Positions 1 to 57,339 of a stretch of DNA of 64,000 bases are shown here, piece after piece. The notes beneath the pieces are model-generated. The model was not told the DNA's origin. It did not search any database and saw nothing but the letters and a program-made list of their open reading frames with translations. The number at the start of each line of letters is the position of its first letter. The first letter of the stretch is position 1. Made by a program: the position numbers and the translations under genes. The DNA is taken from assembly GCA_964016885.1 (NCBI GenBank), contig OZ024742.1:145824001-145888000 (forward strand). The letters run 5' to 3'. The DNA is from Eledone cirrhosa. Lineage: Eukaryota.

Positions 1-3000
1 ATACACCAATGTATATAGTGCCAACACACACCAATGTATATAGTGCCAACACACACCAATGTATATAGTGCCAATATACACCAATGTATATAGTGCCAAC
101 ACACACCAAGGTATATAGTACCAACACACACCAATGTATACAGTGCCAACACACACCAATGTATATAGTGCCATCACACACCAATGTATATAGTGCCAAC
201 ACACACCAATGTATATAGTGCCAACATACACCAATGTATATAGTGCCAACACACACCAATGTATATAGTGCCAACATACACCAATGTATATAGTGCCAAC
301 ACACACCAATGTATATAGTGCCATCACACACCAATGTATATAGTGCCAACACACACCAATGTATATAGTGCCAACATACACCAATGTATATAGTGCCAAC
401 ACACACCAATGTATATAGTGCCAACACACACCAATGTATATAGTGCCAACACACACCAATGTATATAGTGCCAACACACACCAATGTATATAGCACCAAC
501 ACACACCAATGTATATAGTGCCAACACACACCAATGTATATAGTGCCAACACACACCAATGTATATAGTGCCAACATACACCAATGTATATAGTGCCAAC
601 ACACACCAATATATATAGTGCCAACACACACCAATGTATATAGTGCCAACACACACCAATGTATATAGTGCCAACATACACCAATGTATATAGTGCCAAC
701 ATACACCAATGTATATAGTGCCAACATACACCAATGTATATAGTGCCAACACACACCAATGTATATAGTGCCAACACACACCAATGTATATAGTGCCAAC
801 ACACACCAATGTATATAGTGCCAACACACACCAATGTATATAGTGCCAACACACACCAATGTATATAGTGCCAACACACACCAATGTACATAGCACCAAC
901 ACACACCAATGTATATAGCACCAACACACACCAATGTATATAGTGCCAACATACACCAATGTATATAGTGCCAACACACACCAATGTATATAGTGCCAAC
1001 ACACACCAATGTATATAGTGCCAACATACACCAATGTATATAGTGCCAACACACACCAATGTATATAGTGCCAACACACACCAATGTATATAGTGTCAAC
1101 ACACACCAATGTATATAGTGCCAACACACACCAATGTATATAGTGCCAACACACACCAATGTATATAGTGCCAACACACACCAATGTATATAGTGCCAAC
1201 ACACACCAATGTATATAGTGCCAACATACACCAATGTATATAGTGCCAACACACACCAATGTATATAGTGCCAACACACACCAATGTATATAGTGCCAAC
1301 ACACACCAATGTATATAGTGCCAACACACACCAATGTATATAGTGCCAACATACACCAATGTATATAGTGCCAACACACACCAATGTATATAGTGCCAAC
1401 ACACACCAATGTATATAGTGCCAACACACACCAATGTATATAGTGCCAACACACACCAATGTATATAGTGTCAACATACACCAATGTATATAGTGCCAAC
1501 ACACACCAATGTATATAGTGCCAACACACACCAATGTATATAGTGCCAACACACACCAATGTATATAGTGCCAACACACACCAATGTATATAGTGCCAAC
1601 ACACACCAATGTATATAGTGCCAACACACACCAATGTATATAGTGCCAACACACACCAATGTATATAGTGCCAACATACACCAATGTATATAGTGCCAAC
1701 ACACACCAATGTATATAGTGCCAACACACACCAATGTATATAGTGTCAACACACACCAATGTATATAGTGCCAACACACACCAATGTATATAGTGCCAAC
1801 ACACACCAATGTATATAGCACCAACACACACCAATGTATATAGTGCCAACACACACCAATGTATATAGTGCCAACATACACCAATGTATATAGTGCCAAC
1901 ACACACCAATGTATATAGTGCCATCACACACCAATGTATATAGTGCCAACACACACCAATGTATATAGTGCCAACATACACCAATGTATATAGTGCCAAC
2001 ACACACCAATGTATATAGTGCCAACACACACCAATGTATATAGTGCCAACACACACCAATGTATATAGCACCAACACACACCAATGTATATAGTGCCAAC
2101 ACACACCAATGTACATAGCACCAACACACACCAATGTATATAGCACCAACACACACCAATGTATATAGTGCCAACATACACCAATGTATATAGTGCCAAC
2201 ACACACCAATGTATATAGTGCCAACACACACCAATGTATATAGTGCCAACATACACCAATGTATATAGTGCCAACACACACCAATGTATATAGTGCCAAC
2301 ACACACCAATGTATATAGTGTCAACACACACCAATGTATATAGTGCCAACACACACCAATGTATATAGTGCCAACACACACCAATGTATATAGTGCCAAC
2401 ACACACCAATGTATATAGTGCCAACACACACCAATGTATATAGTGCCAACACACACCAATGTATATAGTGCCATCACACACCAATGTATATAGTGCCAAC
2501 ACACACCAATGTATATAGTGCCAACACACACCAATGTATATAGTGCCAACACACACCAATGTATATAGCACCAACACACACCAATGTATATAGTGCCAAC
2601 ACACACCAATGTACATAGCACCAACACACACCAATGTATATAGCACCAACACACACCAATGTATATAGTGCCAACATACACCAATGTATATAGTGCCAAC
2701 ACACACCAATGTATATAGTGCCAACACACACCAATGTATATAGTGCCAACACACACCAATGTATATAGTACCAACACACACCAATGTATATAGTGCCAAC
2801 ACACACCAATGTATATAGTGCCAACACACACCAATGTATATAGTGCCAACACACACCAATGTATATAGCACCAACACACACCAATGTATATAGTGCCAAC
2901 ACACACCAATGTATATAGTGCCAACACACACCAATGTATATAGTGCCAACACACACCAATGTATATAGTGCCAACACACACCAATGTACATAGTGCCAAC

Positions 3001-6000
3001 ACACACCAATGTATATAGTGCCAACATACACCAATGTATATAGTGCCAACATACACCAATGTATATAGTGCCAACACACACCAATGTATATAGTGCCAAC
3101 ACACACCAATGTATATAGTGCCAACACACACCAATGTGTATAGTGCCAACACACACCAATGTATATAGTGCCAACACACACCAATATATATAGTGCCAAC
3201 ACACACCAATGTATATAGTGCCAACACACACCAATGTATATAGTGCCAACACACACCAATGTATATAGTGCCAACACACACCAATATATATAGTGCCAAC
3301 ACACACCAATGTATATAGTGCCAACACACACCAATATATATAGTGCCAACACACACCAATGTATATAGTGCCAACACACACCAATATATATAGTGCCAAC
3401 ATACACCAATGTATATAGTGCCAACACACACCAATGTATATAGTGCCAACATACACCAATATATATAGTGCCAACACACACCAATGTATATAGTGCCAAC
3501 ACACACCAATATATATAGTGCCAACATACACCAATGTATATAGTGCCAACACACACCAATGTATATAGTGCCAACACACACCAATGTATATAGTACCAAC
3601 ACACACCAATGTATATAGTGCCAACACACACCAATGTATATAGTGCCAACACACACCAATATATATAGTGCCAACATACACCAATGTATATAGTGCCAAC
3701 ACACACCAATGTATATAGTGCCAACACACACCAATGTATATAGTGCCAACACACACCAATGTATATAGTGCCAACACACACCAAGGTATATAGTGCCAAC
3801 ATACACCAAGGTATATAGTACCAACACACACCAATGTGTATAGTGCCAACACACACCAATGTATATAGTGCCAACACACACCAATGTATATAGTGCCAAC
3901 ATACACCAATGTGTATAGTGCCAACACACACCAATGTATATAGTGCCAACACACACCAAGGTATATAGTGCCAACACACACCAATGTATATAGTGCCAAC
4001 ACACACCAATGTATATAGTGCCAACACACACCAATGTATATAGTGCCAACACACACCAATGTATATAGTGCCAACACACACCAATGTATATAGTGCCAAC
4101 ACACACCAATGTATATAGTGCCAACACACACCAAGGTATATAGTGACAACACACACCAATGTATATAGTGCCAACACACACCAATATATATAGTGCCAAC
4201 ACACACCAATATATATAGTGCCAACACACACCAATATATATAGTGCCAACACACACCAATGTATATAGTGCCAACACACACCAATATATATAGTGCCAAC
4301 ACACACCAATGTATATGGTGCCAACATACACCAATGTATATAGTGCCAACACACACCAATGTATATAGTGCCAACACACACCAATATATATAGTGCCAAC
4401 ACACACCAATGTATATAGTGCCAACACACACCAAGGTATATAGTGCCAACATACACCAAGGTATATAGTACCAACACACACCAATGTGTATAGTGCCAAC
4501 ACACACCAAGGTATATAGTGCCAACACACACCAATATATATAGTGCCAACACACACCAATGTATATAGTGCCAACATACACCAATGTATATAGTGCCAAC
4601 ACACACCAATGTATATAGTGCCAACATACACCAAGGTATATAGTACCAACACACACCAATGTATATAGTGCCAACACACACCAATGTATATAGTGCCAAC
4701 ATACACCAATGTATATAGTGCCAACACACACCAATGTATATAGTGCCAACACACACCAATGTATATAGTACCAACACACACCAATGTATATAGTGCCAAC
4801 ACACACCAATATATATAGTGCCAACACACACCAATGTATATAGTGCCAACACACACCAATGTATATAGTGCCAACACACACCAATATATATAGTGCCAAC
4901 ATACACCAATGTATATAGTGCCAACATACACCAATGTATATAGTGCCAACACACACCAATATATATAGTGCCAACACACACCAATGTATATAGTGCCAAC
5001 ACACACCAATGTATATAGTGCCAACACACACCAATGTATATAGTGCCAACACACACCAATATATATAGTGCCAACATACACCAATGTATATAGTGCCAAC
5101 ACACACCAATGTATATAGTGCCAACACACACCAATATATATAGTGCCAACACACACCAATGTATATAGTGCCAACACACACCAATGTATATAGTGCCAAC
5201 ATACACCAATGTATATAGTGCCAACATACACCAATATATATAGTGCCAACACACACCAATGTATATAGTGCCAACACACACCAATATATATAGTGCCAAC
5301 ATACACCAATGTATATAGTGCCAACATACACCAATGTATATAGTGCCAACATACACCAATGTATATAGTGCCAACACACACCAATATATATAGTGCCAAC
5401 ACACACCAATGTATATAGTGCCAACACACACCAATGTATATAGTGCCAACACACACCAATGTATATAGTGCCAACACACACCAATATATATAGTGCCAAC
5501 ATACACCAATGTATATAGTGCCAACACACACCAATGTATATAGTGCCAACACACACCAATATATATAGTGCCAACACACACCAATGTATATAGTGCCAAC
5601 ACACACCAATGTATATAGTGCCAACATACACCAATGTATATAGTGCCAACATACACCAATATATATAGTGCCAACACACACCAATGTATATAGTGCCAAC
5701 ACACACCAATGTATATAGTGCCAACACACACCAATATATATAGTGCCAACATACACCAATGTATATAGTGCCAACATACACCAATGTATATAGTGCCAAC
5801 ACACACCAATGTATATAGTGCCAACACACACCAATGTATATAGTGCCAACACACACCAATGTATATAGTGCCAACACACACCAATGTATATAGTGCCAAC
5901 ATACACCAATGTATATAGTGCCAACACACACCAATGTATATAGTGCCAACACACACCAATGTATATAGTGCCAACACACACCAATGTATATAGTGCCAAC

Positions 6001-8402
6001 ACACACCAATGTATATAGTGCCAACACACACCAATGTATATAGTGCCAACACACACCAATATATATAGTGCCAACACACACCAATATATATAGTGCCAAC
6101 ACACACCAATGTATATAGTGCCAACACACACCAATGTATATAGTGCCAACACACACCAATGTATATAGTGCCAACACACACCAATGTATATAGTGCCAAC
6201 ATACACCAATGTATATAGTGCCAACATACACCAATGTATATAGTGCCAACACACACCAATGTATATAGTGCCAACACACACCAATATATATAGTGCCAAC
6301 ACACACCAATGTATATAGTGCCAACACACACCAATGTATATAGTGCCAACACACACCAATGTATATAGTGCCAACACACACCAATGTATATAGTGCCAAC
6401 ATACACCAATGTATATAGTGCCAACATACACCAATGTATATAGTGCCAACACACACCAATGTATATAGTGCCAACACACACCAATATATATAGTGCCAAC
6501 ACACACCAATGTATATAGTGCCAACACACACCAATGTATATAGTGCCAACACACACCAATGTATATAGTGCCAACACACACCAATGTATATAGTGCCAAC
6601 ACACACCAAGGTATATAGTGCCAACACACACCAATGTATATAGTGCCAACACACACCAATGTATATAGTGCCAACACACACCAATGTATATAGTGCCAAC
6701 ACACACCAATGTATATAGTGCCAACACACACCAATGTATATAGTGCCAACACACACCAATGTATATAGTGCCAACACACACCAATGTATATAGTGCCAAC
6801 ACACACCAATATATATAGTGCCAACACACACCAATGTATATAGTGCCAACACACACCAATGTATATAGTGCCAACACACACCAATGTATATAGTGCCAAC
6901 ACACACCAATGTATATAGTGCCAACACACACCAATGTATATAGTGCCAACATACACCAATGTATATAGTGCCAACATACACCAATGTATATAGTGCCAAC
7001 ACACACCAATGTATATAGTGCCAACACACACCAATATATATAGTGCCAACACACACCAATGTATATAGTGCCAACACACACCAATGTATATAGTGCCAAC
7101 ACACACCAATGTATATAGTACCAACATACACCAATGTATATAGTGCCAACACACACCAATGTATATAGTGCCAACACACACCAATGTATATAGTGCCAAC
7201 ACACACCAATGTATATAGTGCCAACATACACCAATGTATATAGTGCCAACACACACCAATGTATATAGTGCCAGCATACACCAATGTATATAGTGCCAAC
7301 ACACACCAATGTATATAGTGCCAACACACACCAATGTATATAGTGCCAACACACACCAATGTATATAGTGCCAACACACACCAATGTATATAGTGCCAAC
7401 ACACACCAATGTATATAGTGCCAACACACACCAATGTATATAGTGCCAACACACACCAATGTATATAGTGCCAACACACACCAATGTATATAGTGCCAAC
7501 ACACACCAATGTATATAGTGCCAACATACACCAATGTATATAGTGCCAACATACACCAATGTATATAGTGCCAACACACACCAATGTATATAGTGCCAAC
7601 ACACACCAATATATATAGTGCCAACACACACCAATGTATATAGTGCCAACACACACCAATGTATATAGTGCCAACACACACCAATGTATATAGTGCCAAC
7701 ACACACCAATGTATATAGTGCCAACACACACCAATGTATATAGTGCCAACACACACCAATGTATATAGTGCCAACACACACCAATGTATATAGTGCCAAC
7801 ACACACCAATGTATATAGTGCCAACACACACCAATGTATATAGTGCCAACATACACCAATGTATATAGTGCCAACACACAGCAATGTATATAGTGCCAAC
7901 ACACACCAATGTATATAGTGCCAACACACACCAATATATATAATGCCAACACACACCAATGTATATAGTGCCAACACACACCAATGTATATAGTGCCAAC
8001 ACACACCAATGTATATAGTGCCAACACACACCAATGTATATAGTGCCAACACACACCAATGTATATAGTGCCAACACACACCAATGTATATAGTGCCAAC
8101 ACACACCAATGTATATAGTGCCAACATACACCAATGTATATAGTGCCAACATACACCAATGTATATAGTGCCAACACACACCAATGTATATAGTGCCAAC
8201 ACACACCAATATATATAGTGCCAACACACACCAATGTATATAGTGCCATCACACACCAATGTATATAGTGCCAACACACACCAATGTATATAGTGCCAAC
8301 ATACACCAATGTATATAGTGCCAACACACACCAATGTATATAGTGCCAACACACACCAATATATATAGTGCCAACACACACCAATGTATATAGTGCCAAC
8401 AT
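1..8402. repeat. 25-bp tandem satellite, consensus CCAACACACACCAATGTATATAGTG, about 336 copies, runs off the left edge of the window
   Basis: 25-nt periodicity visible throughout with only substitution variants; array ends at about 8402. Confidence 0.99.
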
Positions 8403-8599: not shown

Positions 8600-8797
8600 G
8601 GCGGTGGATTGGCAGTATCGGTAGAGGGTCGGACGCCATGCTTTCCAGCATAGTTACGTCCCTTTACGATCTGAGTTCAAATCCCGCCGAGGTTGACTTT
8701 GCCTTTCATCCTTACGGGGTCGATAAAATAAAGTACCAGTAATGCACTGGGTAATTGCTGGCCTTGTGCCAAAAGTAGAAACAATTATTATTATTAT
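8600..8797 (+). mobile_element. tRNA-derived SINE, family A
   Basis: A-box-like TGGCAGTATCGG, B-box GAGTTCAAATCC, body gcctttcatccttacggggtcgataaaataaagtaccag, (ATT)n tail; many copies in the window. Confidence 0.85.
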
Positions 8798-19553: not shown

Positions 19554-19738
19554 GGATTGGCAGTATCGGTAGAGGGTCGGACGCCATGCTTTGACGCATA
19601 GAGTTACGGCCCTTGCCATTCTGAGTTCAAATCCCGCCGAGGTTAACTTTGCCTTTCATCCTTATGGGGTCGATAAAATAAAGTACCAGTAATACACTGG
19701 GTAATTGCTGGCCTTGTGCCAAAAGTAGAAACAATTAT
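19554..19738 (+). mobile_element. tRNA-derived SINE, family A
   Basis: Near-identical to 8600-8797. Confidence 0.85.
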
Positions 19739-20140
19739 TTAATGTAGCCTTTTCCTTATTTAAGGCAATATGGTGTATTTTGAAGATTTGGATGCTATTT
19801 CTAACAGGTCGAGAGCTGATATTTCTAGCTTAAGGAGTGGTGATTGACAGGCGTTAACGGAGAAAGAAGATGGTTTGGGAGACTTTAATAGCAGTTGAAT
19901 TGAAAGGGAAGAGATTCAGTATTACTGACATAAATGGATATTGTTACGGGGAGTTCAGTCATGGATATTGAATATCACACTTTATCAAGGATCTTGTACC
20001 GTAAATTTAGCCTAACAGTGTTATATTCTTTCAGCTTTTGAAATCCAGTTTTCTGAAGAAACAGACCAGTAGTAGATCTAGCTTTACAAATAATGATATG
20101 CACAAGTAAGATGGAATTCATAGTTACAGAAAAGAATCGT

Positions 20141-20320
20141 TAATAATTGTTTCTACTTTTGGCACAAGGCCAGCAATTACCCAGTGCATTACTGGTACTT
20201 TATTTTATCGACCCCGTAAGGATGAAAGGCAAAGTTAACCTCGGCAGGATTTGAACTCAGAAAAGCAAGGGCCGGAACTCAATGCATGACGCCCGACCCT
20301 CTACCGATACTGCCAATCCA
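20141..20320 (-). mobile_element. tRNA-derived SINE, family A
   Basis: Reverse complement of the family A consensus. Confidence 0.85.
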
Positions 20321-21716
20321 AATGTTCACTCAACACTTAATACAGAGTGAAAGATGGAGGAACAATAGCATCAAAAGGCTATCTGCTTTTATTCGAAGTA
20401 GATGTCTGGATAAATAGATACAAAGCTATTTGAAAAGTCCTCAGCATTCAAATATTTAACACGTAACCTTCAAATACCAAATATATAAAATCAGAGGTGG
20501 TTGTGATGCAACAGTTGAATGCATTGACAAAAACTTGCAGTACCACTTATTTTATAGTAGAAAGCAAGTACTACAAATATCCAAATATTGACATGAAGAA
20601 CAGTTTTAAAATTTATCTATATATATATAAAATCCCATTAGGAATAAATTCTAAAAAATATATTCAAACAATCAATAAATGGATGTTGTATCCAATAAAG
20701 GTGCTAAAAATATACAGGGGAAACAGGATCACCGAAGTGAAGCAAGTTCGGATTGAGCTAGCAATCTTTTCTGACTAAGGTAATGGCAGAAGTGAGATAA
20801 TTATACTTTTGGTGTGTAAGACCGTTTTATAAAAACTTGGGATGAATTAGGATGCTAAAATAAACTTAATTATGAGTATAGGTATATATTTTCGTCACGT
20901 CAACTCCACAACAATTTTAGATGAAGAGGCAAATGCACCTTGTGTAATATGTTAAAATCTATTACTAGAAAAGTTTTATAACATTCCACGTTGATTAGTT
21001 TGAAGGTAGCGGTGAATGATCTATGGTAATTAACTAGAAAGTTGCAGCAATAAAGAAAACTATTTTTAAACCTTAGCGGTCTTCTTTTTTCTTATTTGGC
21101 GAACGAATTATTTACATGTCAATTACAAAACCTCTGTATTTTGATAACGAAATATACAATTTTCTTCCATTTACTAAAAATTTAAACTATAATATTCGTC
21201 AAAATAAATTATTGAGAGTTAAAAATAAGTTAAAAGCAAAGTAGAAAAAAAAGTGGTCTGATTTAGTTATATTGCACGATTCTTTCTCTCAGTTTACTTG
21301 GCTGACGCAACTGGCATTAGATATTTACTAAAATCTACAGCAAGAGTGAAAGAAGGATTAAGGAAAACACCCCCTGAGATCCAGCTGATAATTACCAGAT
21401 AGTTTACTACTAATACTGACAGAAGGTAAATAGAAACCATGCACCGGGAAGAAAACTTAAACTTATTTATTAAAAAGAAAAAAGAACTGGGTGGGTAAAA
21501 ATATTAACTGAAAAGTATTTTATATCCATGCTGGGTGCAGCAATAATGTTAAAAAATATAAGGGCTACGTAAGCACCCCCTTTTTTTTTTTTCGTCAGTT
21601 AGTAAACAAAGTTCAAATTCAACCAAACACTAACAAATGTATATATATATTATATATAAGATAGTAATAACAAATTTTAGTTGAAATAATGAAAGAAAGA
21701 GGGAAAATATACTAAC

Positions 21717-35072: not shown

Positions 35073-35566
35073 CCATTCTGTCATAATTGAATTGAGTAGG
35101 CAAGTGATTCAGGGAGACATGATGCTATTACTATAAAAGATTATTGTTGCATATTTATTTAGAAATATCACTTCTTTCTTTCAGATTCAGTACAAACATT
35201 GTTTGTGGAATAAATAAAATTTATTTGAATAAAGAGGTTCAATAATTCTTATTTATGATGATATTTGATTATATCTGTGTGTGTTGGACCTGCATCGAGT
35301 GTTCGAGCTTTTTTATCAACAGAACATCACAAAAATGGATGATCATTTCCATAACGTAATTCTCAGGGAGATTCAGTATGACAGTAGGTGGAGCAATGTG
35401 TGATAAAGTGTTTTGCTGAAGTACACAATGAGCTGCTTGGGATCAAACTCATGAACTTACAATCATGAGCCTAACCATTAAACCACTCACCTTCACACAC
35501 ATACATAGATGTGTGTGTATGTGCATATATATATATACATATGTGTGTGCATATATATATATATAT

Positions 35567-37496
35567 GAGAATAAACGTGCTGCGTGGTTGCTAATGGGTT
35601 ACATATGAAAAAGTTTGTCCTTCATCAGTGGCCTTCCAACCGTCGTAGGCATTTCGTCGCTTTAAAGGCCATATACCTCAGGTTGGTGCGAGCAACCGCT
35701 AAAAAAAGTCGTTGGGACACGTAAATAAAGGGGACGCTAGGGTAAACAAACAAAATGGTTTAAGCAACAGAAAGTGATGAAGAAGAAAGAAACAAGTCCC
35801 AGATTTCTATGAATATAAATTCGGTGGAATCGTGAACGAGAGAATAAAGACCATCAAACCTGGTTGAAATGTGAGCAAGGAAGGAATTTCGCACAGGTCT
35901 AACGGGAGGAAGAAGGGGTCTGGTCTGCGAATTCGGTAAACATAAGTTCTGTGAAGTCGCAGACGAGAGAGAAAGAAAAAAATTCATACCGGCTTGGCCA
36001 AGTACGCGCGAGAAAAGGATTACGGACAGGTCAAACGGGAAGAAAGGGGAGGAGGAGAGGTAGTGACAGAGAGTGAGTGAGTGAAAGGTGAGGAAGAGGG
36101 TAACAGAGAGAGAGAGACTGCTAGAAAGGGTAAAGATACAAAGAACGAAACAGACGGGTAGCAGCGGAGGAAAAAATATATGTGTAAATATGATAATAAT
36201 GGAGCTGCGGCGTTGCAAATGGGTTACATATGAAAAAGTTTGTCCTTCATCAGTGGCCTTCCAACCGTTGTAGGCATTTCGTCGCTTTAAAGGCCATATT
36301 TACACATATATTTTTCCCCGCTGCTACCCGTCTGTTTCGTTCTTTGTATCTTTACCCTTTCTAGCAGTCTCTCTCTCTCTGTTAGCCTCTTCCTCACCTT
36401 TCACTCACCCACTCTCTGTCACTACCTCTCCTCCTCCCCTTTCTTCCCGTTTGACCTGTCCGTAATCCTTTTCTCGCGCGTACTTGGCCAAGCCGGTATG
36501 AATTTTTTTCTTTCTCTCTCGTCTGCGACTTCACAGAACTTATGTTTACCGAATTCGCAGACCAGACCCCTTCTTCCTCCCGTTAGACCTGTGCGAAATT
36601 CCTTCCTTGTTCACATTTCAACCAGGTTTGATGGTCTTTATTCTCTCGTTCACGATTCCACCGAATTTATATTCATAGAAATCTGGGACTTGTTTCTTTC
36701 TTCATCACTTTCTGTTGCTTAAACCATTTTGTTTGTTTACGCTAGCGTCCCCTTTATTTACGTATCCCAACGACTTTTTTTAGCGGTTGCTCGCACCAAC
36801 CTGAGGTATATGGCCTTTAAAGCGACGAAATGCCTACAACGGTTGGAAGGCCACTGATGAAGGACAAACTTTTTCATATGTAACCCATTTGCAACGCCGC
36901 AGTTCCATTATTATCATATTTACACATATATTTTTTCCTCTGCTGCTACCCGTCTGTTTCGTTCTTTGTATCTTTACCCTTTCTAGCAGTCTCTCTCTCT
37001 CTGTTACCCTCTTCCTCACCTTTCACTCACTCACTCTCTGTCACTACCTCTCCTCCTCCCCTTTCTTCCCGTTTGACTTGTCCGTAATCCTTTTCTCGCG
37101 CGTACTTGGCCAAGCCGGTATGAATTTTTTTCTTTCTCTCTCGTCTGCGACTTCACAGAACTTATGTTTACCGAATTCGCAGACCAGACCCCTTCTTCCT
37201 CCCGTTAGACCTGTGCGAAATTCCTTCCTTGCTCACATTTCAACCAGGTTTGATGGTCTTTATTCTCTCGTTCACGATTCCACCGAATTTATATTCATAG
37301 AAATCTAGGACTTGTTTCTTTCTTCTTCATCACTTTCTGTTGCTTAAACCATTTTGTTTGTTTACGCTAGCGTCCCCTTTATTTACGTGTCCCAACGACT
37401 TTTTTTAGCGGTTGCTCGCACCAACCTGAGGTATATGGCCTTTAAAGCGACGAAATGCCCACGACGGTTGGAAGGCCACTGATGAAGGACAAACTT

Positions 37497-37500
<4 letters not shown>
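35567..37500. mobile_element. Tandem/inverted array of a ~620-625-bp non-coding unit (subfamily A) with Penelope pseudo-LTR-like architecture
   Basis: Period 625 (35593 to 36218), inversion near 36298 at CATAT microhomology, period 620 (36301 to 36921); both ends abut (TA)n. Confidence 0.8.
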
Positions 37501-37568
<68 letters not shown>

Positions 37569-37572
<4 letters not shown>

Positions 37573-38523
37573 ATAAACGTGCTGCGTGGTTGCTAATGGG
37601 TTACATATGAATAAAGTTAGTCCTTCATCAGTGATCTTCCAACCATCATTGGTATTTCATCGCTTTAAAGACCATTTACCTCCGGTTGGTGCGAGCAACG
37701 GCTAAAAAAAGTCGTTGGGACACGTAAATAAAGGGGACACGAGTGTAAACAAACAAAGATGGTGAAGCAACGAAAAGTGAGGAAGAAGAAATCAAGTCCC
37801 AAATTTCTATGAATATAAATTCGGTGAAATCGTGAACGAGAGAGAATAAAGACCATCAAACCTGGTTGGAATGTGAGCAAGGAAGGAATTCCGTACAGGT
37901 CTAACGGGAGGAAGAAGGGATCTAGTCTGTGAATTCGGTGAACGTAAGTTCTGTGAAATCGTAGACGAGAGAGAGACAAAAAGCGACCTGCCAGGCCAAG
38001 GGTGCGAAAGAAAAGAATTACGCACAGGTCAAACGGGAAGAAGGAGGAGGAGGAGAGGTAGTAACAGAGAATGAGTGAGTGAAGGGTGAGGAAGAGGCTA
38101 ACAGAGAGAGTGACTGCTAGAGAGGGTAAAGATACAGAGAAAGAGGAAGCAGTAAGAACGAAATAGACGGGTCATAGCGGGGAAAAAAATATGTGTAAAT
38201 ACGAGAATAAATGTGCTGCGTGGTTGCTAATGGGTTACATATGAATAGAGTTAGTCCTTCATCAGTGATCTTTCAACCATCATTGGTATTTCATCGCTTT
38301 AAAGACCATATACCTCCGGTTGGTGCGAGCAACGGCTAAAAAAAGTCGTTGGGACACGTAAATAAAGGGGACACAAGTGTAAACAAACAACGTGTCCCCT
38401 TTATTTACGTGTCCCAACGACTTTTTTTAGCCGTTGCTCGCACCAATCGGAGGTATATGGTCTTTAAAGCGATGAAATACCAATGATGGTTGGAAGATCA
38501 CTGATGAAGGACTAACTTTATTT
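37569..38523. mobile_element. Diverged subfamily B of the same unit, also tandem then inverted
   Basis: Period about 634 (37569 to 38203), inversion near 38391, flanked by (TA)n. Confidence 0.8.
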
Positions 38524-38908
38524 ATATATATATATATACATATGTGTGTGTATATATATTCATATATATAGAACTAGAGATATTTCCCTCATATGTATTC
38601 TCCATATATGAGGGAAATATATTTGATCGTTATCAGGTTTTAAATTTTTTATTAGATTTAATAAGATACTCAACGAATTATGTAGTCTTACTTTCAGTGT
38701 AGATTGTCTCTAGTTCTATGTTTTGATATGTCTTAGTGTACACTTAACTGTGTATGAATATATTTAAATCCCTTTCTTATAATCATTAAGGCTCGATTTT
38801 ATTCTCTGAATTCTATATTGAGCTGTTTTTAGAGACAAGACATATGTTTGATTTTGTATCATTCATGACACCCTTTACTTTGAAAGTAATAATAATAATA
38901 ATAATAAT

Positions 38909-40599: not shown

Positions 40600-41290
40600 A
40601 CAATAAAACTATGCATATATCAGATAAGTAGCACTCAACAGTTGGTAGAACTGGAGTATATATTAAAGAAGAAATTAAAAGATGGTTAAATAATACAAGT
40701 ATAAATACGACGTCAAACGTAACTTTGAGGAATACATCAAATAGTAATGTAAATCTAGAAACTTTAGCACCTCCTTTAGTTAATTCCACCACTCCAGTTC
40801 CTAATATAATTAACCCTGGGCCACTTGCCAATAACACTGTAAATAATCTTAATCGTAAATGCAACTGCCCTATTAGAACTAATTGTCCTCTTGGTAATTT
40901 CTGTCTCGATAAAAACCTAGTATATGAATGTAAAGTGGTAACTAGTACCAATACCCATACCTACATTGGCTCTACTTCTACCTCTTTTAAAGCAAGATTC
41001 TATAATCATTCTTCTTCATTTAAATATCCACTTAAAAGGACCAGCACCGCACTCTCAGAGCTTATTTGGTCCTTAAAAGACAAAAACATTAATTATGAAA
41101 TTTCTTGGCGTAAAATCTACAACGCTTCTCCATACTCCAATGCTTCCACATGTAGTGTTTGTAATTTATGACTAGTTGAAAAACTTACCATTATCTCGAA
41201 TTTCAACTCTTTAATAAATAGAAGAACAAATTTATTTGGTCTTTGCAATCCTTCAAGACCTTTCACAAAGTATATAGCTAATGTCCTATA
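40600..41290 (+). pseudogene. GIY-YIG endonuclease domain of a Penelope-like retroelement (Neptune-like), 5'-truncated
   Basis: CNC..CPLGNFCLDKNLVYECKV..YIGSTSTSFKARFYNHSSSF..STALSELIWSLK..EISW..CNL*LVEK..INRR; premature stop at 41169-41171; no RT domain upstream. Confidence 0.88.
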
Positions 41291-42137: not shown

Positions 42138-42207
42138 TATTTTATCTGATGAGAACACAATTTTTGTCCCAGGATGATGTTGTTTTCGAAATGCGCATAA
42201 TAAAATA
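42138..42207 (+). ncRNA. Type I hammerhead ribozyme in the Penelope 3' pseudo-LTR
   Basis: Stem I TATTTTAT/ATAAAATA, CTGATGA at 42146, stem II gaacacaa/ttgttttc, GAAA at 42188, palindromic stem III ATGCGCAT, AUA triplet. Confidence 0.85.
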
Positions 42208-54715: not shown

Positions 54716-55323
54716 ATGTGTAAATATGTATATATACATGTACATATGTATGTATATGTGTATATGTATATGCATGTGTGCATGTGTATGTATATGCAAG
54801 GGCACATAGAAATAGTTAAACCACTGGAATTGAAGGACCCCTAGCCTTTGTCAGGGCATTCTTCTAGGAGAAGGCAACTCATTATTATAATTATTAATAA
54901 TGGTATATCATGCAATGGCCATACTTAATAGCAAGGGGGCAGCCATCATGCATATATGCATATATGTATGTATGTTATATCAGATCACTCTCAAGCGTTA
55001 CTGGTAACATGTAACCCAGAACAACCTGTTGTATGGTTGGGTCTTCAGCGAATAAATTTGGCAACCCCACCAAGCTTGCTTGGTGAGGAAGTTGAATTTT
55101 AGACACCCTCTGGGATGAAAAACAAAACCTGTCAAATGGCAGAGGAACTCAGGAGAGTCAATGGCTACCTAATAAAGTATATACATATGTATATATTTTA
55201 AAATATAGACATAGAATATTCGAAAATATTCTGTATGTTTATAATAAACATTTTGAAGACCTAATCGCTATAGAATAGAATACGTCACGTATTACAATTA
55301 GATTCTCGATAAAAGCAAGGGAA

Positions 55324-55366
55324 GTAATCTACGCGTTTCATTCTCGTTAGAAATCATCAGGACTAC
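55324..55366 (-). ncRNA. Type I hammerhead ribozyme; second copy at 55634-55676, truncated copy at 55944-55980
   Basis: Reverse complement of gtagtc CTGATGA tttctaacgagaat GAAA cgcg TA gattac. Confidence 0.88.
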
Positions 55367-56103
55367 ATATCCAGTGCTTTTATCGAGAATGACACAGCTA
55401 GAGACTTATAGAATACTTAGCTGTGTACAGGAACTGGTTTGAAAGAGCGGTTGCCGGTCCGGCAGAAATTAGAAATTGGAATAAATGCTCTGAAATAGCG
55501 ATATATATGTGAATATAGACATAGAATATTCGAAAATATTCTGTATGTTTATAATAAACATTTTGAAGACCTAATCGCTATAGAATAGAATACGTCACGT
55601 ATTACAATTAGATTCTCGATAAAAGCAAGGGAAGTAATCTACGCGTTTCATTCTCGTTAGAAATCATCAGGACTACATATCCAGTGCTTTTATCGAGAAT
55701 GACACAGCTAGAGACTTATAGAATACTTAGCTGTGTACAGGAACTGGTTTGAAAGAGCGGTTGCCGGTCCGGCAGAAATTAGAAATTGGAATAAATGCTC
55801 TGAAATAGCGATATATATGTGAATATAGACATAGAATATTCGAAAATATTCTGTATGTTTATAATAAACATTTTGAAGACCTAATCGCTATAGAATAGAA
55901 TACGTCACGTATTACAATTAGATTCTCGATAAAAGCAAGGGAAGTAATCTACGCGTTTCATTCTCGTTAGAAATCATCAGAGCATTTATTCCAATTTCTA
56001 ATTTCTGCCGGACCGGCAACCGCTCTTTCAAACCAGTTCCTGTACACAGCTAAGTATTCTATAAGTCTCTAGCTGTGTCATTCTCGATAAAAGCACTGGA
56101 TAT

Positions 56104-56146
56104 GTAGTCCTGATGATTTCTAACGAGAATGAAACGCGTAGATTAC
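56104..56146 (+). ncRNA. Type I hammerhead ribozyme; identical copies start at 56414, 56724 and 57034
   Basis: Stem I GUAGUC/GAUUAC, CUGAUGA, stem II UUCU-AACG-AGAA, GAAA, palindromic stem III ACGCGU, GUA cleavage triplet. Confidence 0.9.
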
Positions 56147-57339
56147 TTCCCTTGCTTTTATCGAGAATCTAATTGTAATACGTGACGTATTCTATTCTAT
56201 AGCGATTAGGTCTTCAAAATGTTTATTATAAACATACAGAATATTTTCGAATATTCTATGTCTATATTCACATATATATCGCTATTTCAGAGCATTTATT
56301 CCAATTTCTAATTTCTGCCGGACCGGCAACCGCTCTTTCAAACCAGTTCCTGTACACAGCTAAGTATTCTATAAGTCTCTAGCTGTGTCATTCTCGATAA
56401 AAGCACTGGATATGTAGTCCTGATGATTTCTAACGAGAATGAAACGCGTAGATTACTTCCCTTGCTTTTATCGAGAATCTAATTGTAATACGTGACGTAT
56501 TCTATTCTATAGCGATTAGGTCTTCAAAATGTTTATTATAAACATACAGAATATTTTCGAATATTCTATGTCTATATTCACATATATATCGCTATTTCAG
56601 AGCATTTATTCCAATTTCTAATTTCTGCCGGACCGGCAACCGCTCTTTCAAACCAGTTCCTGTACACAGCTAAGTATTCTATAAGTCTCTAGCTGTGTCA
56701 TTCTCGATAAAAGCACTGGATATGTAGTCCTGATGATTTCTAACGAGAATGAAACGCGTAGATTACTTCCCTTGCTTTTATCGAGAATCTAATTGTAATA
56801 CGTGACGTATTCTATTCTATAGCGATTAGGTCTTCAAAATGTTTATTATAAACATACAGAATATTTTCGAATATTCTATGTCTATATTCACATATATATC
56901 GCTATTTCAGAGCATTTATTCCAATTTCTAATTTCTGCCGGACCGGCAACCGCTCTTTCAAACCAGTTCCTGTACACAGCTAAGTATTCTATAAGTCTCT
57001 AGCTGTGTCATTCTCGATAAAAGCACTGGATATGTAGTCCTGATGATTTCTAACGAGAATGAAACGCGTAGATTACTTCCCTTGCTTTTATCGAGAATCT
57101 AATTGTAATACGTGACGTATTCTATTCTATAGCGATTAGGTCTTCAAAATGTTTATTATAAACATACAGAATATTTTCGAATATTCTATGTCTATATTCA
57201 CATATATATCGCTATTTCAGAGCATTTATTCCAATTTCTAATTTTAAAATATATTTTATGTGTATACATTTAAATTTTTTTTCATCTTTTAACTTTTAAC
57301 ATGTTTTTTTAAAAACTTTTTAACTTTACAATTTGTTTT

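Follow-up and report, generated by a model that had tools for sequence, protein, structure and literature searches.

A dispersed, non-coding repeat of the Eledone cirrhosa genome carries a pseudoknotted, non-circularly permuted hammerhead-like motif. We judge this motif to be probably a self-cleaving hammerhead, predicted to fold as a circular permutation of the published type SGC opened between CUGAUGA and stem II, in a repeat that a Penelope-like element (PLE) likely copies in trans. The analyzed stretch of 64,000 nucleotides (hereafter, the window) holds seven copies of the motif, four of them on the minus strand and one of those 5'-truncated; the repeat pieces span 35552-38530 as tandem, truncated and inverted arrangements of a ~625 bp unit. 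The predicted strands of the copy flagged by an earlier, sequence-only reading and the repeat pieces around it are listed by window position.

36791..36862, plus strand: whole predicted ribozyme of the flagged copy, subfamily A (from strand pairing tallies and alignment)
36791..36794, plus strand: stem II strand 10.2-10.5, UCGC, from the 5' flank; pairs with 36822-36825, all four pairs in 164/179 copies
36796..36801, plus strand: 5' strand of helix P (equivalent to the stem I/II interaction helix); pairs with 36841-36846
36802..36804, plus strand: non-bulged strand of the predicted kink-turn (3n, G2n, A1n); G and A each in 173/179 copies
36805..36810, plus strand: 5' strand of stem III with U16.1 (36809) and N17 (A36810); cut predicted 3' of 36810 by analogy
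36811..36817, plus strand: stem I strand 3' of the predicted cut; pairs with 36847-36853
36822..36834, plus strand: stem II strand 11.5-11.1, GAAA core (36827-30) and 3' strand of stem III (descriptor and pairing checks)
36835..36840, plus strand: bulged strand of the predicted kink-turn (3-nt bulge, G1b, A2b, 3b); G1b and A2b each in 176/179 copies
36841..36862, plus strand: 3' strand of helix P, stem I strand, CUGAUGA (36854-60) and base 10.1 (36861 or G36862)
35552..36299, minus strand: inverted subfamily A copies; predicted ribozyme 35620-35691
36245-36299, minus strand: 5'-truncated predicted ribozyme of subfamily A, starting 3 nt before the predicted cut
36300..37507, plus strand: subfamily A tandem, a ~625-bp unit followed by one that ends in (AT)n; further predicted ribozyme at 37416-37487
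37554..38390, minus strand: subfamily B tandem; predicted ribozymes 37623-37694 and 38257-38328
38394..38530, plus strand: inverted 5'-truncated subfamily B copy ending in (AT)n; predicted ribozyme 38438-38509

Strand order and relation to published hammerheads

The core strands of the flagged copy lie where the sequence-only reading had placed them: AGGUAU at 36804-09, A36810, UGGCCUU at 36811-17, GAAA at 36827-30, AUGCCU at 36830-35, AAGGCCA at 36847-53 and CUGAUGA at 36854-60. The subfamily B motif noted from 38443 on likewise bears the base changes that had been claimed for it. Across subfamilies the strand order is kept as II-P-III-UH-I-II'-GAAA-III'-P'-I'-CUGAUGA. Stems I and III adjoin the core, both in the copy tallies and in an alignment of 10 representatives, and the core bases are those of a hammerhead, with U16.1 in 179/180 copies and only A, C or U at N17 (CUGAnGA is fixed by the selection of rows). 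These tallies of 179 or 180 copies cover loci that were not picked for deviation, and leave out L091-L165, which were picked as deviant, and overlapping duplicates. We retain the proposed cut after A36810 as a prediction by analogy with known hammerheads.

As had been noted, the order fits none of types I-III; the stems cross, and Rfam yielded no matches in the window at the gathering score. The same reading knew of no described hammerhead with this topology, but the S-G-C block order is already published. The sections of Eckert et al. (2023, PMC10085705) used here define blocks S, G and C and report in vitro cleavage by types SGC and CSG; according to them, none of the RNAs came from genomes of known organisms except one GCS candidate, and SGC was only metatranscriptomic. 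As far as these sections go, our motif shares with SGC and CSG the S-G-C order, a short linker between stems I and II, a full catalytic core and a helix that connects stem I with stem II at their far ends. It differs from their SGC in having the strands of stem II and of the interaction helix 5' of the cleavage block, in its kink-turn-like loop and in residing in an animal genomic repeat. With these strands so placed, block C is split, whereas the same sections assume CUGAnGA to be inseparable from its stem II strand. Judged from sequence, the layout is best described as SGC whose strands for stem II and P are shifted to the front, a predicted circular permutation with its opening between A9 and position 10 and a putative arrangement outside the six published orders. 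In the literature that we searched, mostly open-access, neither this layout nor the presence of non-circular permutations in animal genomes had been described.

Stem II and helix P

The sequence-only reading had proposed a weak stem II formed by CUUU and AAAG. Our analysis does not support it: the duplex has a predicted energy of +0.7 kcal/mol, and the 4-bp partner is absent in 43/179 copies. The upstream pairing of UCGC (36791-94) with GCGA (36822-25), complete in most copies (see the list above), occurs in 0-1 copies when the register is slid, except at -4 (98 copies) and -5 (27); an alternative upstream register (GUUGC) fits 98/179 copies. This stem is weak (-3.6 kcal/mol) and, among the 10 representatives, shows only one-sided change within this lineage. 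Base 11.1 is paired with the first base past CUGAUGA in 143/180 copies, as A-U, G.U, U-A or G-C, while 35/180 copies, the flagged one included, have A.C at this pair. Stem II may consist of four to five pairs supplied by the 5' strand, on which a single pair made by the base following CUGAUGA is stacked. In locus L155, an apparent 7-bp stem II was rejected as the product of a 3-nt deletion in that copy.

Helix P starts one base past the upstream stem II strand, and its 3' strand leads into stem I. Each of its pairs is formed in 128-136 of 138 copies, and two pairs show two-sided change. It corresponds to the helix that joins the segment before stem I to the segment after the stem II strand, in a permuted position. 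The sequence-only reading had overlooked both this helix and the kink-turn-like loop described below.

A different reading keeps the ordinary SGC order with a minimal stem II, in which one pair and non-canonical G.A contacts come from the downstream GGAC and the upstream UCGC is incidental. GGA(C/U) is indeed conserved after the core and is not accounted for by our preferred structure; moreover, the +1 G pairs with 11.1 in 152/180 copies, C or U four bases on faces G11.5 in 172/180, and the sections of PMC10085705 used here show U-G after the core in the SGC RNAs. Copies linked to a LINE (see below) fit a downstream stem II with one mismatch in 14/23 cases versus 11/23 for the upstream one, although these copies are old and their automatic anchoring imperfect. 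However, Watson-Crick partners of 11.2-11.4 occur downstream in only 1-3 of 180 copies, and our re-coded Eckert SGC descriptor gave no hits in 294 sequences, in which an intact block C (at least 3 pairs directly after CUGAUGA(U)) was absent. Furthermore, in the Naiad consensus passages covered below, 6-bp upstream stems II occur, and several passages lack the G after the core. We therefore regard the minimal-stem reading as unlikely and favor a stem II supplied mainly from upstream.

A predicted kink-turn between stem III and helix P

The loop between stem III and helix P has three free bulge bases, followed by G and A facing a G and an A on the opposite strand. All four G/A bases are present in 165/179 copies by letter count, and at least four triplets are common in the bulge. 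The loop fits what we take to be the standard kink-turn consensus, and we refer to it as a predicted kink-turn. Such a kink, together with helix P, would fold back from stem III and hold stems I and II side by side, so that the two elements may replace the usual contact between loops I and II. The flagged copy carries a private change here, A in place of G1b at 36838, where aligned contigs read G. Owing to this change and its A.C at 10.1-11.1, sister copies are better test material.

Copies and conservation across the genome

A pattern that starts at the GAAA block and stops one base past CUGAUGA gave 11,236 matches in this 3.0-Gb assembly, and its reversed control gave none. The full structural descriptor made 167 hits in 184 sequences from the same genome, none in 109 loci taken from pattern scans of metagenome (79) and viral (30) contigs, and none in a 6.4 Mb Markov-1 control. 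With 11,236 matches against none, and a descriptor clean in controls, the motif is not a chance occurrence. Searches of the genome recovered subfamilies A, A', B, C, D, G and others, whose units measure ~530-630 bp.

We compared the conservation of the motif with that of its surroundings. The alignment favored the motif: among seven subfamily copies, the invariant columns were 10/11 in the core, 22/44 in the helices and 101/489 in the rest of the unit. Similarly, subfamily A is 73-76% identical to C, D and G in the predicted ribozyme versus 52-58% upstream, while A versus B shows no extra conservation of the motif (85% vs 86%). In the alignment of 10 representatives, the full pseudoknot had 95.8% of its cells paired, compared with 35-48% in slid controls; the structure was read from the same sequences, so these controls lean towards it. 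Two-sided change was seen in 7/24 pairs, namely four of the seven stem I pairs, bearing out the covariation that had been claimed, two in helix P, and 10.1-11.1. Only 1/500 shuffles scored as high, a figure inflated by related rows.

Separately, L305, L307, L308 and L309 represent more families, old and degenerate, that keep this block order and have an AAUGA linker; no linked ORF was seen.

Related motifs in Naiad elements and a LINE

Naiads are PLEs reported without canonical hammerheads; in the portion of PMC8557442 used here, only "core" and "half core" matches are flagged (8 half cores), and the cephalopod Naiads are called long inactive. We parsed by eye the consensus passages accessible to us, a part of the 3' ends among 54 sequences. 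Eight of these passages, all with an upstream stem II of 6 bp in a different sequence, show the window's order: Naiad_Obim, Naiad_Ovul, Naiad_Bfor, three near-identical Acropora entries and two unnamed ones (near parts 12 and 19). One Acropora entry has mismatches, and Naiad_Bfor has a stem I of only 2 bp and a long insert. Six further passages, near nematode entries (parts 13-16), read as type CSG and include helix P; we tentatively assign one near part 17 to SGC, and three others with a core match remained unparsed. Among the passages parsed, the octopus entries share the kink-turn linkers UGA and ARUGAU, which the others do not. The octopus Naiad motif, searched as an exact pattern, had no matches in this genome. 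Overall, the repeat resembles Naiads, as presented in that portion, in its (TA)n target, tail, and tandem and inverted insertions, and the octopus 3' ends have the same strand order; Naiads differ in that they encode EN-RT, whereas the repeat is non-coding.

A second family in this genome adjoins the 3' side of a broken ORF, with the motif downstream at 21/30 loci and upstream at 0/30. The ORF has an RVT_1 match (E 9.5e-8), and its C-terminus is RLE-like and shares 80-87% identity with several fish proteins. The RLE-type LINE with the permuted motif in its 3' UTR is seen in L391 (110-1817), L400 and L402. Horizontal transfer is a possible explanation for a C-terminus up to 87% identical to fish proteins. 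Against prokaryote contigs the LINE protein gave one weak 24-residue match; against viral contigs it gave none, and a search with a 49-residue piece gave none. We assume that the LINE belongs to the Hero clade. Hero is placed among the R2-group clades in the part of PMC3636483 used here. The likeness to an R2-group (RLE) non-LTR retrotransposon lies in a homologous-looking motif just 3' of the ORF in this genome's copies; the LINE differs from the repeat in being protein-coding and in that its stem II can be drawn upstream or downstream. The upstream stem II is complete (5/5 pairs) in L391 and L400, while both kink-turn GA pairs are found in 5/23 of the LINE-linked copies, which are old and imperfectly anchored. 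The intact LINE-type motif pattern had no matches in this genome. The family also occurs in tandem, in 85-87 bp units with 50 copies in L162 (G000:C20:19501727-19507288), and its arrays place CUGAUGA ~14 nt before the next stem II strand. Satellites of 87-90 bp with one whole permuted motif per unit were observed in L162 and at G000:C2:218952172-218954212.

Element anatomy and proposed mobilization

The repeat consists of dispersed and tandem non-coding units with one predicted ribozyme each, and shows a (TA)n target, a 3' tail, tandems and 5' inversions. (AT)n targets, tails, tandems and inversions are described for PLEs in the portion of Craig et al. (2021, PMC8557442) covered here. The ~625 bp unit folds modestly (z -2.4, 20 shuffles), and the one long open frame in it has low complexity. 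In 170/234 copies, (AT)n is reached within 110 nt of the core, with peaks at +14-16 and +55-65 (distances 40-50 nt apart); the other 64 have no nearby (AT)n, and those printed run on into the next unit. At the other end, 208/274 copies pass the predicted cut and reach over 125 nt upstream of the core. No sharp pile-up of 5' ends was found at the cut, with 14/66 falling within -7..+4 versus ~7 if even, a post hoc count from biased sampling. Contigs of runs X4 and X1 showed no clustering of begins or ends, which material of this sort is unable to reveal. Two patterns in this genome and the long ORFs of the examined loci revealed no autonomous PLE sharing the 3' end of the repeat.

The repeat resembles the non-LTR retrozymes of animals as described in the parts of PMC7229834 and 10.64898/2026.07.22.740005 used here: both are low-GC, dispersed or tandem, non-coding units with one hammerhead-like motif each. 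It differs in its units of 530-630 bp and S-G-C order, whereas those retrozymes have hammerheads of type I, the only type covered by the descriptors used to find them; mobilization by PLEs is proposed for them in the same parts. By analogy with known retrozymes, read-through transcripts of tandem copies would be cut after A36810 into unit-length RNAs, a host ligase would close these into circles, and the circles would be reverse-transcribed into (AT)n nicks, yielding tandems, tails and 5' inversions. The copying would likely occur in trans, by a Penelope-like element.

The earlier reading had left a choice between a pseudoknot and assembly from adjacent tandem units. We favor the pseudoknot, and a tandem partner is not needed in the predicted fold, where helix P and stem III close within one unit. 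We rate it as quite unlikely that the motif acts only in dimers or tandems, where the CUGAUGA block of one unit and the II-P-S-G of the next would form type CSG with a large insert. Tandems are common, the arrays of the related LINE family have the spacing given above, and dimers are required by some retrozyme hammerheads, according to the part of PMC7229834 covered. On the other hand, besides the closure within a unit, single motifs stand at Naiad and LINE ends, and subfamilies C, D and G no longer have a candidate palindrome, CUUUAAAG; a palindrome-driven dimer was accordingly rejected. It is very improbable that the motif is a relic that has lost catalysis and persists as a fold bound by a protein, either the retroelement RT or a kink-turn-binding host protein: most copies run through the predicted cut and stem II is marginal, but the catalytic bases are fixed while stems and linkers vary, and read-through is expected from circular templates. 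We retain the self-cleaving permuted hammerhead as the probable reading.

Several other features of the window were observed. The repeat unit shows internal self-complementarity at 36440-36710, with a strong pyrimidine bias on the ribozyme strand. A 310-bp tandem repeat at 55191-57244, with a head-to-head inversion at ~55980, is probably a classical retrozyme; its units can each be read as a normal type I hammerhead, in which CUGAUGA precedes GAAA (e.g., 56110-56140). A Penelope-like, GIY-YIG-type ORF fragment was recognized by eye at 40632-41290, without a Pfam match, and a type-I-like hammerhead end follows 0.9 kb past it (42146-42200); a similar end follows a PLE-like fragment in locus L039. 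Across five PLE-like fragments, Pfam gave one GIY-YIG match, below threshold. The window also contains a minisatellite at 3-8401 (25-bp unit, 336 copies) and a dispersed SINE-like family (8618-8789, 19568-19739, 20140-20325 and others), presumably akin to octopus SINEs.

Discussion

The repeat and two retrotransposon groups with the same or related strand orders likely use an overlooked form of the hammerhead, as far as their sequences can tell. With slightly more confidence than doubt, we further propose a large hidden class of pseudoknotted hammerheads in animals, in which one circle of strands is opened at different points to give CSG, SGC and the new kink-turn-braced form, whose opening lies within the core. 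This class would include the missing ribozyme of Naiads, occur in Hero-type LINE 3' UTRs and drive a new class of retrozymes. Genome surveys now rely on type I-III descriptors, and such elements would be missed.

If our reading is true, the motif would be a seventh hammerhead layout and would break the assumed inseparability of CUGAnGA and stem II. Non-circular permutations would move from anonymous metatranscriptomes to high-copy repeats of animal genomes, and, with its core braced by a natural kink-turn, the ribozyme would present proteins with a handle for acting on cleavage. Finally, the question of why Naiads "lack" hammerheads would become directly testable.
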